Shown: in pieces, positions 7,922-22,129 of the stretch
Numbering within the stretch: position 1 is the stretch's first letter
Layout of the letters: each line of letters starts with the position of its first letter
IMG/VR virus record: IMGVR_UViG_3300028591_000112
Coordinates: 95,934 to 131,615 of that record
Strand: one strand, 5' to 3'
Origin: a virus
Lineage: Duplodnaviria > Heunggongvirae > Uroviricota > Caudoviricetes
DNA length: 35,682 nucleotides
Program-made: the position numbers and the translations under genes
Notes under the pieces: model-generated
The model's database searches: none
What the model was told of the DNA's origin: nothing
Seen by the model: only the letters and a program-made list of their open reading frames with translations

Positions 7922-8013
7922 GCGGGTATACCCAAGTTCGGCTGAAGGGGGCTGCCTACTAAGCAGCTAGGTCGTTTTTTGATGCGAAGGTTCGAATCCT
8001 TCTGCCCGCGCCA
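7922..8013 (+). tRNA. tRNA-Ser(ACU)
   Basis: Long variable arm, G73; arm gctgc-ctactaa-gcagc. Confidence 0.9.
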
Positions 8014-9243: not shown

Positions 9244-9318
9244 ACAGAGATCGTTCAATCGGTAGGACATTGGTCTCCAAAACCAATTATCTAGGTTCGA
9301 GTCCTAGTCACTGTGCCA
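9244..9318 (+). tRNA. tRNA-Trp(CCA)
   Basis: Cloverleaf; arm ttggt-ctccaaa-accaa; G73. Confidence 0.93.
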
Positions 9319-9374: not shown

Positions 9375-9818
9375 ATGGATATTAAAAGTGGTTGCGGTTA
9401 TCCTGCATCAAGTTTATCAAATTTTTGTCCACATCCTTTTGTAATTGATGGTATACAATGCAATTCAATGGAAGGTTTTTTACAAAGTTTAAAATTTAAA
9501 GATATTGAAATGCAAAAATACGTTTGTTCTTTGGTAGGCAAGGCTGCAAAATTTAAAGGCAAACCTAAAAAGTGGTATAAAACTCAAATTTTATATTGGC
9601 TAGGTACAGAATATCAAAGAGAAAGTCAAGAATATCAAGATTTATTAGATAGAGCTTATAAGGAATTATTTAAAAACGAAACATTTAAAAAAGCATTATT
9701 ATCTACAAAAGATACAATAATTACTCATTCTATTGGTAAATCTAATAAAAAAGAAACTGTTTTAACAGAACAAGAATTTTGTTCAAGATTAATGAAACTT
9801 AGAGATGGTACATTATAG
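9375..9818 (+). CDS. NADAR family protein (T4 gp30.3-like)
   Basis: LSNFCPHPFVIDGIQCNSMEGFLQSLKF motif. Confidence 0.85.
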   Translation: MDIKSGCGYPASSLSNFCPHPFVIDGIQCNSMEGFLQSLKFKDIEMQKYVCSLVGKAAKFKGKPKKWYKTQILYWLGTEYQRESQEYQDLLDRAYKELFKNETFKKALLSTKDTIITHSIGKSNKKETVLTEQEFCSRLMKLRDGTL

Positions 9819-9890
9819 GAGTTTAGTGTAATGACAGCGCATTGGTCTTTAAAACAGATAATCTAGATTCAAATTCTAGTTGCTATGCTA
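9817..9890 (+). pseudogene. Degenerate tRNA-Trp copy (loop ct-tta-aa)
   Basis: 5' half resembles exon 10344-10376, 3' half resembles 9244-9318; stems broken; ends CTA. Confidence 0.7.
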
Positions 9891-9952
9891 TTTTTTGACT
9901 TTTTTATAAAAATATTATATAATATTTATATAGAAAAAGAAAGAGGGATACT

Positions 9953-10339
9953 ATGCAAATTATTAATAAAAAGGTTCAATTAGAAGGATATGAAGTTGAA
10001 CTTTTAGAAAGAAATTCTGCTTATATAGATGTACAAACATTAGAATTAATTCCTCTATACAAAGTAAGAGAACAAGAAAAGATTTTTTGTTTAGATGTTC
10101 TATCTGAAATGATAGAAAAAAATGGAATAATACTTATTGAAGATACTAATAATTTGATAGAATATGTAAAAGAAAATTTTAGTTTTTATAAAAATTTTTA
10201 TCATTTATCAGTAGACATAAGAGATTATCCAGATTTATTAAGTTGGATAACTTTTAAACAATGGGAAAAATATCCAGGACATGAGTTAATAATGGATATA
10301 GATGGCACTTTCTTTTTAATAGAAATGGAAGAAAAATAA
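9953..10339 (+). CDS. Hypothetical protein
   Basis: Own promoter and GAGGG RBS. Confidence 0.75.
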   Translation: MQIINKKVQLEGYEVELLERNSAYIDVQTLELIPLYKVREQEKIFCLDVLSEMIEKNGIILIEDTNNLIEYVKENFSFYKNFYHLSVDIRDYPDLLSWITFKQWEKYPGHELIMDIDGTFFLIEMEEK

Positions 10340-10376
10340 TCTTAGGGGCTTAGTGTAATGGCAGCACATCGGTCTT

Positions 10377-10981
10377 AAGCTAAAATAAAAAGGAGTAAAA
10401 TTATGGATACAATAACAAAAGGAAGACTAGGATATAACCTATTAGAAAAAGAATTACTTAAAAGAGAATTTGAAATTTATATTCCTTTATTAGAAAATAC
10501 AAAAATAGATTGTATAATTTGTAAAAATGGAGTATTACTAAAATTACAAATTAAAACAATTCAAATAGATAGAGGATATAAAAAACTTCCTGTTAGAAAG
10601 ATTAGTCATAATCAAGGAGAGTATAAAGTTCATAATTATACCTCTGATGAAATAGACTTCTTTATTGGAACTGATGTAGAAACAGAAGATTTATATATAG
10701 TTCCTATTTCAATAATAGAACAGTATAAATCTGCAATTTCAATTAAAACATTAGAACCTTATAAAAATAATTTTACTCTATTGGAGCCTCAAGTTGGAAA
10801 CAATTTGAGTGGATGCGATGATATCGGTGAAACCTTAACTGGTAATACCGAGGGAATAGAATAATATTCTAGCCCGTAGAGAGTAGATAATCGCACACCT
10901 AAGTTAGAAATAATATGGTGAAGATGTACTCCAGACCACAAACTACAGTATCCAGTAGGTAGTGAAAACTATAGTGGCAAG
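10377..10981 (+). mobile_element. Group I intron after U34 of tRNA-Trp(UCA)
   Basis: Guide ttggag, P2 ctcaagttg/caatttgag, atcggtgaaa, aataccgag, gtagagagta, aagatgtactcc, terminal G. Confidence 0.9.
10403..10864 (+). CDS. Intron-encoded PD-(D/E)XK homing endonuclease (I-Ssp6803I-like)
   Basis: TKGRLG...IP.....IDCII...KLQIKT...YTSDEIDFF. Confidence 0.85.
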   Translation: MDTITKGRLGYNLLEKELLKREFEIYIPLLENTKIDCIICKNGVLLKLQIKTIQIDRGYKKLPVRKISHNQGEYKVHNYTSDEIDFFIGTDVETEDLYIVPISIIEQYKSAISIKTLEPYKNNFTLLEPQVGNNLSGCDDIGETLTGNTEGIE

Positions 10982-11097
10982 CAAAACCGTAAGAGCGGGG
11001 TCTCCAAAACCTCGGGTGTGGGTTCGAGTCCTACAGCCCCTGCCATGAGTTTTTAACGAGTTGTTCGTTTATTAATACATTTAGAAAGAGGGATAGT

Positions 11098-11449: not shown

Positions 11450-11491
11450 GAATAAAGGGGGCGTGGCGGAATCGGTAGACGCACAGGACTT

Positions 11492-12268
11492 TGTTCTAGT
11501 TTACAAAACCACACACAGAGCACTTAAATAGGAAACTTTTAAGTGAATGATGGCTAATTCGGCGAAAGACTTATTAAGTTAACGCCGAGCTAAATATTTT
11601 TGGGCAAACGCTTTAAAAATGTAGACATATTTTTCATAATAATATAAGAGGTGAAAATTATGGCATTACAAAAATACACAAAAGAATGGTTAGAAGAACT
11701 TTGTAAAGATAGTTTTTCATTAGCAGAAGTGTTAAAAAAAGCAGGTCGTAAACAAGGTGGAGGTAACCAAGAAACATTAAAGAAAAAAATTCAAGAATTT
11801 GATATTGATATTTCACATTTTACAGGACAACTTTGAAATAAAGGAAAAACAAAAGAAGAAGATAATAGAATAAAAAGTAATGAAAAATATTCATTAGAAG
11901 AAGTATTTTGTAAAAATAGTCCTGTAACGCAAAAGGTTTTACGTGGTTATGTAGAAAGACACAATATTTTAGAATATAAATGTGAAACCTGTGGATGTGA
12001 TGGGCATTGACAAGGTGGAGAAATTTCATTAGAAATAGACCATATTAATGGAGATAATACAAATAATACAAAAGAAAATCTTAGATATTTATGTCCTAAC
12101 TGTCATGCATTAACAGAAACTTATCGTGGAAAAAATAAAGCATTAAAAGCTCAAAAGTTAAATGTGTAGAGACTATACACCATCCACCTAAGTCTTTATA
12201 AGATATGGTGAAGACATAGTCCAGACTACAACGCGATTTCCGCGGCTATAGTAATATAGAGTAGTAAG
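11492..12268 (+). mobile_element. Group I intron in tRNA-Leu(UAA)
   Basis: P1 ctttgt/acagag, aattcggcgaaa, aacgccgag, gtagagacta, aagacatagtcc, terminal G; same U34^A35 site as cyanobacterial/plastid trnL introns. Confidence 0.93.
11660..12169 (+). CDS. Intron-encoded HNH endonuclease (code 4, 169 aa)
   Basis: Reads through two TGA; CETC...LEIDHINGDNTNNTKENLRYLCPNCH. Confidence 0.9.
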
Positions 12269-12339
12269 AAAATCCTGCGAGGTTAATCCCTCATGTGGGT
12301 TCAAGTCCCACCACCCCCACCATTTTTAGGAGGTAAGAT

Positions 12340-14221: not shown

Positions 14222-14247
14222 TTATGAAAATGAAGGGAGATATAAAA

Positions 14248-14673
14248 ATGAATAGCAAAGATAAAGGTAATATTGGTGAAGCTATTGTTTTAGCAGAGTT
14301 TGCAAAAAGACAAATTCAAGTAGCAATTCCTTTTGGAGATAATGCTAGATATGATTTAATAGCAGATTTTAATGGCAAATTAAATAAAATACAAGTAAAA
14401 TATTGTGGACAAATTACAGAAAATAATTCTTTTACTTGTCCTTGTGCAAGTAGTACAAATCATACTACTAATAAACATTTATCTACTTATGAAAATGATG
14501 TAGATTATATGGCATTTTATCTTGTATCTATTGATAAATTATTATTAGTTCCAATAAAACAATTAGAAGGTAAAAAAACTATTACTTTTAGATTAGAACC
14601 ACCAAAAAATGGACAACATATAGGAATTAATTTAGTAGAAGATTATTTATTAGATAAAATTATAAATATTTAA
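14248..14673 (+). CDS. PD-(D/E)XK homing endonuclease (I-Ssp6803I-like), no intron core seen
   Basis: KDKGNIGEA...IPFGDNARYDLIAD...KIQVKY...YENDVDY. Confidence 0.88.
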   Translation: MNSKDKGNIGEAIVLAEFAKRQIQVAIPFGDNARYDLIADFNGKLNKIQVKYCGQITENNSFTCPCASSTNHTTNKHLSTYENDVDYMAFYLVSIDKLLLVPIKQLEGKKTITFRLEPPKNGQHIGINLVEDYLLDKIINI

Positions 14674-14818: not shown

Positions 14819-15043
14819 ATGGCACGTTATTCTAGTCTTTTAAAACAAAAGATGCAAATTATTGCTATTGAAATAATCTAGAGCGATTTTTAAAAAGTTT
14901 GAAGTGTAGTCTCAGTGGTAATCAAGTCGTAGAAAATATTTCTACCACAAAAGTAAAACGAAAGTGCAACCCTAGTAATAGGCTGTCTTTTGTGAGGAAA
15001 ACTTACTTGACCTAAGCTACAGAATTACTTTTTAAAATGCCAT
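14819..15043 (+). ncRNA. Putative structured ncRNA (~225 nt)
   Basis: Nested helices atggca/tgccat, tttaaaaagt/actttttaaa, tcaagt/acttga, cacaaaag/cttttgtg, gtagaaa/tttctac. Confidence 0.55.
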
Positions 15044-19167: not shown

Positions 19168-20382
19168 ATGTTAAATATAAAAGGAGGACGCGAACTTGCT
19201 TATGTAGTTAATATAGATAAAATTGAACCAATAGTAGGTTCAGATAATTGTGAATGTGCTATTGTAGGCGGATGGCGTATAATGGTTCGTAAAAATACAT
19301 TCAAAGAAGGAGATAAAGCTGTCTATTTTGAAATTGATTCAAAATTACCTGAAACAGTAGAATGGTCTCAATTTTTAATTAAAAAGCATTATAGAGTAAA
19401 AACTCAAAAATATACTTTTGGTGGTGCGGGAAATTTTATTTCTCAAGGTTTATTAATGTCTTTTGCAGATTTTGGTTGGGATAATGAACAATATCAAGTT
19501 GGAGATTTTTTAACTGAAATATTAGGAATAACTTATGCTATTGCAGACGATAATAAAAGAAAAGCAGAAGTAGATAAATATACTAGAATGAAACAAAGAC
19601 ATTATGAATTATTTAGAAAAAATAAATTAATTCAATGGTTATTTAAAAGAACTTGGGGTAAAAAATTATTATTTATCTTTTTAGGTAAAAAAAGAGATAG
19701 TGCTAGCGGATGGCCAGTTGGAAAATTCCCAGGGGTAGCTAAAACGGATCAAGAGAGATGTGAAAATATGACTTGGGTTTTAGAAGATAAAACTCCATAT
19801 ATAGTAACTCAAAAATGTGATGGTTCATCTGGTACTTTCATATTAGAAAGAAAACATTTAGGTAAATATGAATTTTATGTTTGTAGTAGAAATGTAAGAA
19901 TGTTTAAACCAGAACAAACATGCTTTTATGGAGATAATAATTATTATTGGGATGTTGCTATTAAATATAATATAGAAGAAAAAATGAAAAAATATTTACA
20001 AGAAAATAAAGATATTAATTTTGTTTGCTGGCAAGGAGAAATATGTGGACCTAATATTCAAAATAATCCGCATAAATTACAAGAATTACATTTATTTTGC
20101 TTTCATATGACAGATAGTAAAAATGGTAGATATGATATCCGCGAAGCTAAAAAAATATGGGATAAATATGAAATGGAAACTGTTCCTATTGTAGATACAA
20201 ATTTTATTTTACCTGATGATTTTGAAGAATTTAAAAAACAAGCAGATGGATTATATGATGCTTCTGTTTGTGAAGGTAATGAAAATTGTGTAAGAGAAGG
20301 TTTTGTATATTACAAGACTACAGATCCAACTTTCTCATTTAAAAATGTATCAAGAGAATACTTAATTGGAAAAGGCGAATAG
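19168..20382 (+). CDS. ATP-dependent RNA ligase, DRB0094/Rnl2-like
   Basis: RELAYVV...VYFEIDS N-domain; motif I TQKCDGS, VCSRN, QGEICG, REGFV, SFKNVSREYL. Confidence 0.92.
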   Translation: MLNIKGGRELAYVVNIDKIEPIVGSDNCECAIVGGWRIMVRKNTFKEGDKAVYFEIDSKLPETVEWSQFLIKKHYRVKTQKYTFGGAGNFISQGLLMSFADFGWDNEQYQVGDFLTEILGITYAIADDNKRKAEVDKYTRMKQRHYELFRKNKLIQWLFKRTWGKKLLFIFLGKKRDSASGWPVGKFPGVAKTDQERCENMTWVLEDKTPYIVTQKCDGSSGTFILERKHLGKYEFYVCSRNVRMFKPEQTCFYGDNNYYWDVAIKYNIEEKMKKYLQENKDINFVCWQGEICGPNIQNNPHKLQELHLFCFHMTDSKNGRYDIREAKKIWDKYEMETVPIVDTNFILPDDFEEFKKQADGLYDASVCEGNENCVREGFVYYKTTDPTFSFKNVSREYLIGKGE

Positions 20383-20913: not shown

Positions 20914-20929
20914 AAAGGAGATGATTATT

Positions 20930-22129
20930 ATGACAAATGTAAAAATATTTACAGATAATATAGAGGGCGAAGCATTAAATCAAATATATACTTTAGCTAA
21001 ATTACCTGCATTTGATAATGCAAAAATTCGTATTATGCCAGATGTTCATGCGGGAGCTGGATGTGTGATAGGTTTTACTGCGGATTTAGGTAATAAAGTA
21101 ATTCCTAATATTGTTGGAGTGGATATTGGATGCGGAATGCGCGTTATAAAACTAGGAAATATAGATATAGACTTCGAAAAGCTAGATCGAATCATCCGTG
21201 AGCAGGTTCCCGCAGGTCATGAAGTTCATAATAAAATCTCTTTAGAAATAGATAAAAAATATATAGATAAATTGATATGTAAAAAAGCATTAAGAGATAA
21301 AGACCGTTTAATGGCATCTCTTGGAACTTTAGGTGGCGGAAATCATTTTATAGAAATAGATAAAGATGATGAAGGCTGTAAATATTTAGTAATTCATACA
21401 GGTTCTCGTAATTTAGGAAAACAAGTTGCAGAAATTTATCAAAATCAAGCAATTATGAATTTATCTCCTAAAAAAGATTATTCTAAATTATCTCAAGAAT
21501 TAATTTCTACATATATACAACAAGGAAGACAAACTGAAATACAACTTGCTCTTGCAAAATTACGTTCTGACCTTGATACATTACAACCTAAGATACCTAA
21601 AGAATTAAGTTATCTTGAGGGGGCAGCAAGAGAAAATTATCTATTTGATATGAACATATGCCAAGAATTTGCTGTTGCTAATAGAGAAAAAATTGCAAAT
21701 ATAATTTGTACTGAAATGAATTGGAATAAAATAGAAGAATTTGAGTCTATTCATAACTATATTTCTTTTAAAGATAATATTGTTAGAAAAGGAGCTATTT
21801 CCGCATATAAAGGACAAAAAGTAATTATCCCAATGAATATGCGTGATGGTTGTATAATAGGAATTGGAAAAGGAAACTCAGACTGGAATCAATCTGCTCC
21901 ACATGGAGCTGGAAGAATCATGTCACGAGCTGCCGCAAAATCTTCAATTAAACTACAAGATTATGAAAAATCTATGCAAGGTATATGGACTTCTACTGTA
22001 AATGAATCAACTATAGACGAGTCTGCATTTGCATATAAACCAATGTTAGAAATAATTGATAACATAAAAGATACTGTTGAAATTATAAATATTATTAAAC
22101 CAATATATAATTTCAAAGCAAGTGAATAA
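20930..22129 (+). CDS. rtcB: RtcB RNA ligase
   Basis: MPDVHAG, VGVDIGCG, GTLGGGNHFIE, HTGSR, RKGA, SAPHGAGR, DESAFAYK. Confidence 0.97.
   Translation: MTNVKIFTDNIEGEALNQIYTLAKLPAFDNAKIRIMPDVHAGAGCVIGFTADLGNKVIPNIVGVDIGCGMRVIKLGNIDIDFEKLDRIIREQVPAGHEVHNKISLEIDKKYIDKLICKKALRDKDRLMASLGTLGGGNHFIEIDKDDEGCKYLVIHTGSRNLGKQVAEIYQNQAIMNLSPKKDYSKLSQELISTYIQQGRQTEIQLALAKLRSDLDTLQPKIPKELSYLEGAARENYLFDMNICQEFAVANREKIANIICTEMNWNKIEEFESIHNYISFKDNIVRKGAISAYKGQKVIIPMNMRDGCIIGIGKGNSDWNQSAPHGAGRIMSRAAAKSSIKLQDYEKSMQGIWTSTVNESTIDESAFAYKPMLEIIDNIKDTVEIINIIKPIYNFKASE

Follow-up and report, generated by a model that had tools for sequence, protein, structure and literature searches.

A phage opal-suppressor tRNA-Trp gene with a group I intron in its UCA anticodon and a second, CCA-bearing anticodon-like arm

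The closest described relatives of the gene analysed here are the opal suppressors of gut phages with genetic code 4 (Borges et al., 10.1101/2021.08.26.457843; Seki et al., PMC12636597). These have a UCA anticodon and the discriminator G73, rely on host enzymes for charging and come from phages that write TGA for tryptophan in structural and other genes without a tryptophanyl-tRNA synthetase (TrpRS) of their own. As to how such tRNAs are charged, the Borges preprint settles on no mechanism and only supposes that they might possess “noncanonical sequences or secondary structures”. The traits of these opal suppressors are shared by a split tRNA-Trp gene (10344–11045, plus strand) in the window, i.e. 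the whole 35,682-nt stretch of phage DNA analysed here (positions 95,934 to 131,615 of the Caudoviricetes record IMGVR_UViG_3300028591_000112). The window tRNA has two further features: a group I intron within the anticodon and a second anticodon-like arm with CCA in its loop. Neither a second anticodon arm nor a tRNA intron is described in the accessible text of Borges or Seki. Homologues of the window tRNA do occur among the 31 UCA tRNAs of Table S1 in PMC12636597, one of them from Borges's Agate representative scaffold. This related tRNA and the size of the genome hint that the window phage may belong to the Agate clade.

Other described systems share single elements of this arrangement. 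The Jade-type module (AP1 and HF2 pairs) likewise reads UGA as Trp, by means of a single-armed tRNA(UCA) together with its own TrpRS and RF1; its tRNAs are ordinary cloverleaves and show no activity in E. coli extract unless their own TrpRS is supplied. Unlike this module, the window phage has neither TrpRS nor release factor (PF00579 and PF00472 absent) and carries the extra arm instead. The intron resembles the Leu.3Ug group I intron (CUU/a...g/AAAA; Williams 2020) in its insertion position, U-1, terminal G, P1/P10 guide and covarying P3/P7 core, and differs from introns of this kind in its host gene, a phage suppressor tRNA-Trp(UCA), although the 21 cases of Williams might include such a site. 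In size and nuclease family it is similar to the I-Ssp6803I intron of tRNA-fMet (655 nt, with a 150-aa PD-(D/E)XK nuclease; PMC1995217). An extra stem-loop between anticodon and T arms, together with G73, is also found in class II tRNAs (Ser, Leu, Tyr), tRNA-Sec, allo-tRNA and selC* tRNA-Cys(UCA), and tRNA-Sec shares the UCA anticodon as well (PMC5389517, PMC7609411). In contrast to these, the two-armed family has a 7/5 fold, an unpaired linker, an invariant U-CCA loop and Trp as its product, not Ser, Sec or Cys. An anticodon-like hairpin as a synthetase site is known from the E. coli thrS operator, where two anticodon-mimic stem-loops are bound by dimeric ThrRS apart from decoding (PMC9976931). 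That operator is an mRNA leader which represses translation and has no acceptor stem, whereas the mimic in the window sits inside a tRNA. A full-text literature search, in which subscription journals are little covered, found no paper describing such a two-armed tRNA. The second arm is not mentioned in the accessible text of the Borges preprint, PMC7609411 or PMC5389517, and neither “variable arm” nor “variable loop” occurs in the main text of PMC12636597, nor “variable” in its PDF supplement.

The split tRNA gene and the genetic code of its phage

The 5' exon (10344–10376; this and all features below are on the plus strand) encodes the 5' strand of the acceptor beginning with A1, the D arm, the 5' strand of the anticodon stem and C32-U33-U34. 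The 3' exon opens with C35-A36-A37-A38 and the 3' strand of the anticodon stem (10982–10990), which complete a UCA, i.e. UGA-reading, arm. A 6-nt linker (10991–10996) leads to the second anticodon-like arm (10997–11013), recognised by its fold and its conservation, with a 5-pair stem and the 7-nt loop CUCCAAA (11002–11008) in which CCA occupies 11004–11006. After a further linker of 4 nt (11014–11017), the gene ends with a segment (11018–11045) made up of the T arm (11018–11034), the 3' strand of the acceptor including U72 (11035–11041), the discriminator G73 (11042) and an encoded CCA end.

Joining 10376 to 10982 gives a product of 97 nt, and upon this removal of the intron a cloverleaf with a UCA anticodon forms in the fold. 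The tRNA body shows a 7/5 acceptor/T fold with 2 nt before a 4-pair D stem, rather than the 8/5, 8/4 or 9/3 configuration of tRNA-Sec, allo-tRNA and selC*. The UCA stem has four pairs, the top pair 27:43 being U:U, and Trp acceptor identity of the bacterial type is present in the form of G73 and A1-U72. In fold energy, the 97-nt RNA does not stand out from shuffled sequences (z −0.53).

The splice junction is fixed by intron-less alleles that carry the exact join. The spliced sequence is identical over its 97 nt to the intron-less gene at L010:1474–1570; viral contig L010 is the same contig as L001, whose gene upstream of the tRNA matches the window's neighbour at 431/444. Moreover, position 10376 is followed directly by 10982 in a 373-nt contig from DNA run X2, which shares the flanks of the window and has three differences. 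The original prediction held that removal of 10377–10981 creates a UCA anticodon and that the guide ttggag pairs with both exon ends; the first claim is borne out by these alleles, the guide is able to pair as described, and every element was found where it had been placed. The misassembly it had allowed for is refuted by the identical, independent intron-less allele and by the X2 contig with the same join. Two other joins were tried, one to a later “taag” in the 3' exon as an alternative 3' splice site and one from the 5' exon to the CCA loop. Neither provides D- or anticodon-stem pairing, and the intron-less alleles fix the junction. On its sequence, the feature is a phage opal-suppressor tRNA-Trp gene with its UCA anticodon split by a group I intron.

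The source record (131,615 bases, 28% G+C) has direct terminal repeats and is rated 100% complete; the window is its end. The sequencing run that matches the phage best carries a sheep-gut label and is a possible source of it, while partial matches are mostly from bovine gut. Open reading frames (ORFs) of at least 150 aa account for 0.45 of the genome when it is translated in code 11, for 0.70 when TGA is a sense codon (code 4) and for 0.49 when TAG is one. TGA is present in 46 of 77 non-overlapping long ORFs, and with 160 TGA against 208 TGG, ~43% of the Trp codons in long ORFs are written as TGA. When TGA in the RNase H of the phage was read as X, four of five X fell opposite W in the top solved homologues. 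By its coding pattern, the phage reads TGA as Trp. TrpRS (PF00579) and release factor (PF00472) were not found in the complete genome, although the controls matched in 14 and 10 of 14 genomes. ARAGORN with intron search lists 28 tRNAs in the whole genome, miscalls the split gene as Thr and finds no UCA anticodon beyond it, which extends to the entire phage the earlier claim that this is the only intact UCA anticodon of the window. The two-armed tRNA whose UCA would arise by splicing is thus upheld as the sole UCA tRNA found in a complete genome with TGA as Trp; the alternative offered alongside, a scar left by intron homing, is not (see below). UGA decoding in this phage would depend on splicing, and intron-less relatives show that the intron is not needed for it.

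The two-armed family and its suppressor activity

The distribution of long-armed UCA tRNAs was assessed by an arm-blind census of the viral collection (57 of 64 parts scanned, 120 loci). The pattern asked for a UCA loop followed by a long arm of any kind, then a T arm and an acceptor of seven pairs with the discriminator G73, which was thus imposed; a CCA loop was not required. An earlier loose pattern, applied to 2 of 64 parts, had given 13 UCA tRNAs among 120 loci and was replaced by anchored patterns. The census returned 124 matches, 52 of which failed the stem filters while 72 passed, 56 of these being distinct. UCCA is found in the arm of 55 of the 56 distinct long-armed 7/5 UCA tRNAs, compared to 5.6% of shuffled arms, and A1-U72 in 44 of 56. 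Similarity among the bodies of two-armed tRNAs ranges over 43–100%, with a median of 65%, and at 80% they form 21 clusters. Four stem pairs of the second arm are formed in 95% of cells, as opposed to a permuted mean of 51% (maximum 60%) and 25–47% in slid controls; for the 21 cluster representatives, the stem is 92% paired, against 48% permuted. GC, CG, AU, UA and GU pairs are all used across the family. The second complete Trp anticodon arm that the original prediction placed before a single T arm is thus confirmed as the hairpin 10997–11013 and conserved in 55 distinct intron-less tRNAs. The two-armed tRNA is a real, conserved, functional architecture. An origin of the second arm by recent copying from the ordinary Trp(CCA) gene of this phage was rejected, the stems being different.

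Within the second loop, position 37' is A in 53 of 55 sequences. Position 32' varies (G in 33, C in 13, U in 9), whereas ordinary Trp(CCA) tRNAs have C32 in 13/13; conservation of A37' together with relaxation of 32' is more in line with recognition of the triplet by a protein than with decoding. U33' lies 14 nt from the T stem in 39/55 sequences and 13–15 nt from it in 54/55, whereas the 5' offset ranges from 6 to 16. In the window, this spacing is 14 nt in the ordinary tRNA-Trp as well as for the second arm, and the second arm is a perfect Trp anticodon arm (C32, U33, CCA, A37 and A38).

A scan of bacterial genomes (19 of 64 parts, 120 loci), with a pattern that demanded TCCA, gave 27 tRNA-like matches, 22 of them distinct: 19 were 8-pair tRNA-Sec-like genes and three true two-armed tRNAs. 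Many of the tRNA-Sec-like genes (L399–L506 from bacteria, and L111) have CCA in a short variable-arm loop, which the pattern selected and which may be chance. The same two-armed tRNA is present in contigs assigned to Parabacteroides and Gemmiger (L412, L492), probably one phage contig binned into both. In Bacteroides neonati, a two-armed UCA tRNA lies beside the packaging genes of a ~28-kb prophage (L488, corresponding to G103:C2 ~110,700–138,700). Its capsid, terminase, maturation protease and tail genes each have one in-frame TGA within the PHROG-matched stretch, while host genes flanking the prophage have almost none. The terminase and portal of this prophage appear split or interrupted.

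A counterpart is found among amber suppressors. An arm-blind search for long-armed CUA tRNAs (31 of 64 parts, 121 loci, L522–L642) gave 48 tRNA-like matches, 43 of them distinct, and 20 of the distinct ones have a U-Y-U-G-A motif. A CUG (Gln) hairpin passed the hairpin filter in 19 of the 43 distinct tRNAs. It lies 14 nt from the T stem in 16/19 and 13–15 nt in 19/19, with 5' offsets of 5–13. The other 24 include CUG arms with short stems as well as apparently ordinary suppressors of class II. In the Trp/UGA and Gln/UAG families alike, the amino acid to which the stop codon is recoded is the one whose sense anticodon forms the extra triplet. Table S1 of PMC12636597 contains 11 amber rows with an extra CUG arm, 10 of which are strongly active.

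Published suppression data bear on the function of the two-armed tRNAs. Seki et al. (PMC12636597) assayed 31 phage UCA tRNAs in E. coli extract, with a background of 5.4k relative fluorescence units (RFU) and a wild-type value of 69.1k RFU. Classified by eye, the UCA tRNAs of Table S1 comprise 13 two-armed, 12 single-armed and six doubtful cases. All 13 two-armed tRNAs give 26.7–58.9k RFU, i.e. 33–84% of wild type after background, whereas 20k RFU is exceeded by 2/12 single-armed and 0/6 doubtful ones. Trp was inserted by all 13 non-orthogonal UCA tRNAs tested by mass spectrometry (MS). At least six of these are two-armed, as 11 of the 31 lie near background and only seven of the other 20 are not two-armed. 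These data establish two-armed homologues as functional suppressors that the enzymes of E. coli extract are able to charge.

Gene content points in a similar direction. The TrpRS gene trpS (TIGR00233) scored above cut-off in 0/79 records with a long-armed tRNA (77 with a CCA loop), one weak match with stops aside, and in 0/17 two-arm records of at least 90% completeness. Conversely, trpS is present in 5/23 records with a single-armed UCA tRNA (3/6 of the complete ones), within ~10 kb of the tRNA. Fisher's test of trpS against arm state gave P 4.5e-4 and 0.011 with kinship ignored; the comparison involves asymmetrical search patterns and many fragmentary records. Release factors show no such separation, being present in 2/29 two-arm and 2/14 single-arm records. 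These data fit two alternative solutions, to bring the enzyme or to carry the arm.

The group I intron and its surroundings

The intron (10377–10981, 605 nt) lies between anticodon positions 34 and 35 (site 3Ug), ends in a terminal G and is absent from L001 and the X2 contig. An ORF of 153 aa for a PD-(D/E)XK endonuclease (10403–10864), preceded by a Shine-Dalgarno-like AAGGAG (10390–10395), begins in the P1 loop and runs into the ribozyme core. The internal guide sequence TTGGAG (10781–10786) is able to pair with CUU at the 5' exon end (P1, including a U.G wobble) and with CAA at the 3' exon start (P10); its core TGGAGC is kept in all intron-bearing relatives where it was located. The ribozyme core (10788–10981) comprises P2 (10788–10809), P3 (10814–10819/10890–10895), P4–P6 (10824–10875), P7 (10881–10885/10927–10931), P8 (10896–10920) and the P9 region (10936–10977). 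This structure was drawn by hand on the window row and then scored on 10 aligned relatives, where 98.7% of cells are paired and 18 of 45 pairs show a compensatory change, in comparison to 33–48% pairing in slid controls. P3 and P7 are both 100% paired, with both-side changes in 3/6 and 1/5 pairs, respectively, so that the P3/P7 pseudoknot is present. Rfam finds no intron here, neither at the gathering score nor at E ≤ 1; the Rfam group I seed contains no bacterial intron (Williams 2020, 10.1101/2020.01.27.920355). The intron is predicted to self-splice through P1/P10 and, by analogy with the four classical tRNA introns, may belong to subgroup IC3.

The intron ORF matches PF11645 (PDDEXK_5) with 61.1 bits (cut-off 26.1, E 1.5e-16) and, weakly, PDB entry 2ost (E 0.002). 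It is predicted to encode a homing endonuclease. Searches with the endonuclease gave seven viral and 13 metagenome loci, partly the same contigs. The insertion site is identical in the 17 of 20 loci where both exons are readable, the 3' exon being unreadable in the other three (L647, L653, L655). The comparison with related phages that the original prediction called for thus revealed one and the same site in every intron-bearing relative with both exons readable, together with precise intron-less alleles; the shared site and the covarying core speak against a chance arrangement. Intron-bearing relatives and the window have 10 distinct 3' exons, eight with a U-CCA loop and two (L007, L648) with other long arms. 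The viral collection holds 72 intron-less two-arm or long-arm loci versus seven intron-bearing ones.

The endonuclease ORF has an in-frame stop at codon 23 in 7/19 translated relatives (L005, L006, L647, L649–L651, L655), and in these its synthesis would need the spliced tRNA hosting it. At the same codon, the window has Phe and L008/L654 have Trp; the window allele of the ORF is devoid of both TGA and TGG codons. In the same phage, a sister group I intron of ~777 nt interrupts tRNA-Leu(UAA) (window ~11458–12322), likewise between positions 34 and 35; this intron contains an HNH endonuclease gene with two in-frame TGA, and L001 has an intron-less Leu(UAA) there. Owing to its patchy presence, its nuclease and the precise empty alleles, the intron looks like a mobile homing passenger, which is the simplest reading; it would have spread through its endonuclease. 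Intron and second arm are independent features. Run X1, a possible source of the phage, returned no piece spanning the locus among its contigs.

Upstream of the split gene, the phage has a separate, ordinary tRNA-Trp(CCA) gene (9244–9318, assigned from sequence and tRNA calls). The region 9895–10339 contains a predicted sigma-70-type promoter (9895–9923, 11/12 consensus matches) and a 128-aa ORF without a Pfam family that ends at 10339, 4 nt before the tRNA gene. The promoter call is a consensus match only, with 15 such sites found against 11.4 expected. Promoter, ORF and split tRNA gene probably share one transcript. A decayed, single-armed tRNA-like copy with a UUA loop and a broken acceptor stem is located at 9817–9885 (Rfam 27 bits). 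It begins at the stop codon of a Gp30.3-like gene, exactly where L001 has an intact two-armed tRNA; its 5' half is like the UCA family and its 3' half like the Trp(CCA) gene. Elsewhere in the window, a tRNA-Ser with the unusual anticodon ACU (7922–8013) recurs in L017, a second, apparently free-standing PDDEXK_5 endonuclease gene (14224–14673) lies between tRNA-Lys and tRNA-Asn, and a partial OLE RNA match (14888–15037; 91 bits, model positions 438–593) falls within the tRNA cluster. Two further genes, which from their motifs we take to be RNA-ligase-like (19168–20382) and RtcB-like (20921–22129), suggest tRNA repair.

Possible role of the second arm

We consider it rather probable that the second arm offers host TrpRS a handle of CCA identity and leaves the decoding of UGA to the UCA arm. 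The precursor would self-splice via P1/P10, joining U34 to C35 and yielding the 97-nt RNA which relatives encode without an intron. Host TrpRS would then read A1-U72, G73 and the U-CCA-A loop of the second arm. Between charging and decoding, the two arms would exchange places beneath the D stem, as suggested by the canonical placement of the CCA arm relative to the T arm, and of the UCA arm relative to the D arm, with a variable linker between them; this physical exchange is a tentative part of the scheme, possible rather than probable. The subsequent step, suppression of UGA by endogenous synthetases alone with insertion of Trp, is the one shown for homologues in E. coli extract. Judged by its genome, the phage completes the scheme by writing TGA for Trp without a TrpRS or release-factor gene of its own. 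The anticodon is listed among the major Trp identity elements in a review (PMC9976931). In TrpRS, triplet and acceptor are read by different subunits, and in the E. coli TrpRS–tRNA structure C34 is bound loosely, discrimination against U34 not being required (PMC12135181).

Several observations weigh against this assignment. The active single-armed tRNAs UCA-12 (28.8k RFU) and UCA-18 (50.8k RFU) are two of the three single-armed tRNAs with A1-U72 and G73, and their activity implies that E. coli TrpRS can charge a UCA tRNA without a second arm. The contrast in activity is confounded by acceptor identity, as most two-armed tRNAs also have A1-U72 and G73. Consequently, the E. coli extract data, which include no arm-altered variant among the assayed tRNAs, do not show that the second arm is needed. 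Among tRNAs with a G1-C72 acceptor, one two-armed representative reached 26.7k RFU versus 7.0–11.7k for four single-armed ones, a single, weak point in favour of the arm. Furthermore, no trpS was seen in 18/23 single-arm records, three of which are nearly complete, and the Fisher P values (2e-5, 4.5e-4 and 0.011) overstate independence, the records being related. Long-armed variants without a CCA loop exist on a related body (L275, L648 and L007/L646). RNA runs gave only contigs of relatives, including one of 625 nt with a two-armed tRNA, in which splicing, strand and level are not visible. The tRNAs of L275, L648 and L007/L646 may be charged differently. In L275 and L648 the arm resembles the intron's 3' (P9) end; L007 carries another loop of 7 nt. 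The arm in general may be most important where the host enzyme is stricter, or where host tRNA-Trp and RF2 compete.

Alternative functions of the arm were weighed against the same data. It could be a decoy or shield against host anticodon nucleases or other tRNA-binding defence, or recruit anticodon-modifying enzymes, with charging independent of it. The likely tRNA-repair enzymes of the phage (RtcB-like and RNA-ligase-like) and the ability of E. coli TrpRS to do without the arm speak for such a role. It is nevertheless unlikely, as it leaves unexplained the match between triplet and inserted amino acid in the Trp/UGA and Gln/UAG families, the 14-nt distance to the T stem, and the occurrence of trpS only with single-armed tRNAs. 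Alternating conformations in which UGA and UGG are each read by one arm, i.e. a dual decoder or code switch, would make the second arm a working anticodon arm, in line with the perfect Trp arm of the window allele and its canonical register to the T arm. Across the family, however, G at 32' (33/55) and an unpaired 31'-39' (15/55) are unlike decoding loops with their C32 (13/13). An ordinary tRNA-Trp(CCA) is already encoded by the phage, and such a gene lies within 1.5 kb at 11 of 18 two-arm loci. As wobble normally allows U34 to read UGG as well as UGA, there is no need for a dual decoder, and we regard it as quite unlikely. We likewise find it very unlikely that the uncharged tRNA shows CCA to the Trp specifier of host T-box riboswitches, thereby raising the supply of Trp or TrpRS: the TGA-recoded prophage with a two-armed tRNA in B. 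neonati resides in a genome (completeness not stated) without a T-box match. Class II identity, with charging by SerRS or action as tRNA-Sec and an incidental CCA loop, takes its appeal from a long variable arm and G73 being SerRS determinants (PMC7609411, PMC5389517) and from ARAGORN labelling two-armed genes as SeC. It is rendered highly improbable by the 7/5 instead of 8/5 fold, the attachment of the arm through an unpaired linker of 5–7 nt, the alignment of TGA with Trp, the invariant loop sequence and the MS result of Trp for 13/13 UCA tRNAs, at least six of them two-armed. For the three variants without a CCA loop, a Ser/Sec identity may still hold.

The history of the locus allows for two further explanations. 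The intron may be a purpose-kept timer that gates the switch to UGA as Trp through splicing. It does split the sole UCA anticodon found in the phage genome, and in 7/19 translated relatives the reading frame of its endonuclease is interrupted by a stop codon at a position occupied by W or F in others. Precise intron-less alleles in a near-identical strain (X2 contig) and in L001, the 72 intron-less versus seven intron-bearing loci, the homing-type nuclease and the sister intron at the same site of the Leu(UAA) gene make a timer decidedly improbable. The second arm as a neutral recombination scar or assembly chimera, part of which the original prediction had entertained as intron homing into a CCA tRNA, would be in keeping with the local rearrangement indicated by the decayed copy at 9817–9885. 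We give it virtually no credence: the identical two-armed gene exists elsewhere without an intron, 55 distinct homologues show compensatory changes in the arm, and both the functional data and the parallel amber family argue against a scar.

Taking the second arm as a handle for the host synthetase, a broader class of five-armed tRNAs may tentatively be proposed. In its members, the host synthetase, itself unmodified, would be offered a sense anticodon (CCA in the case of Trp, CUG in that of Gln), after which the arms would swap for the ribosome, with gating by a self-splicing intron in the present case; this generalisation is possible rather than likely. Taken alone, the intron represents a known type of element at a new site. 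Genes labelled tRNA-Sec, or missed and miscalled when they contain an intron, hide suppressors in recoded genomes, and the prophage of a cultured Bacteroides with a two-armed tRNA offers a laboratory system. How recoded phages charge suppressor tRNAs without a synthetase of their own is left open in the Borges preprint, and the two-arm architecture is a testable answer. If true, it would represent a natural tRNA in which the anticodon read by the synthetase differs from that read by the ribosome, found for two amino acids, and provide a portable suppressor design, in which a grafted cognate anticodon arm keeps identity and leaves the decoding anticodon free. Should the five-armed class prove true, a phage would change its genetic code with one short RNA and no protein.

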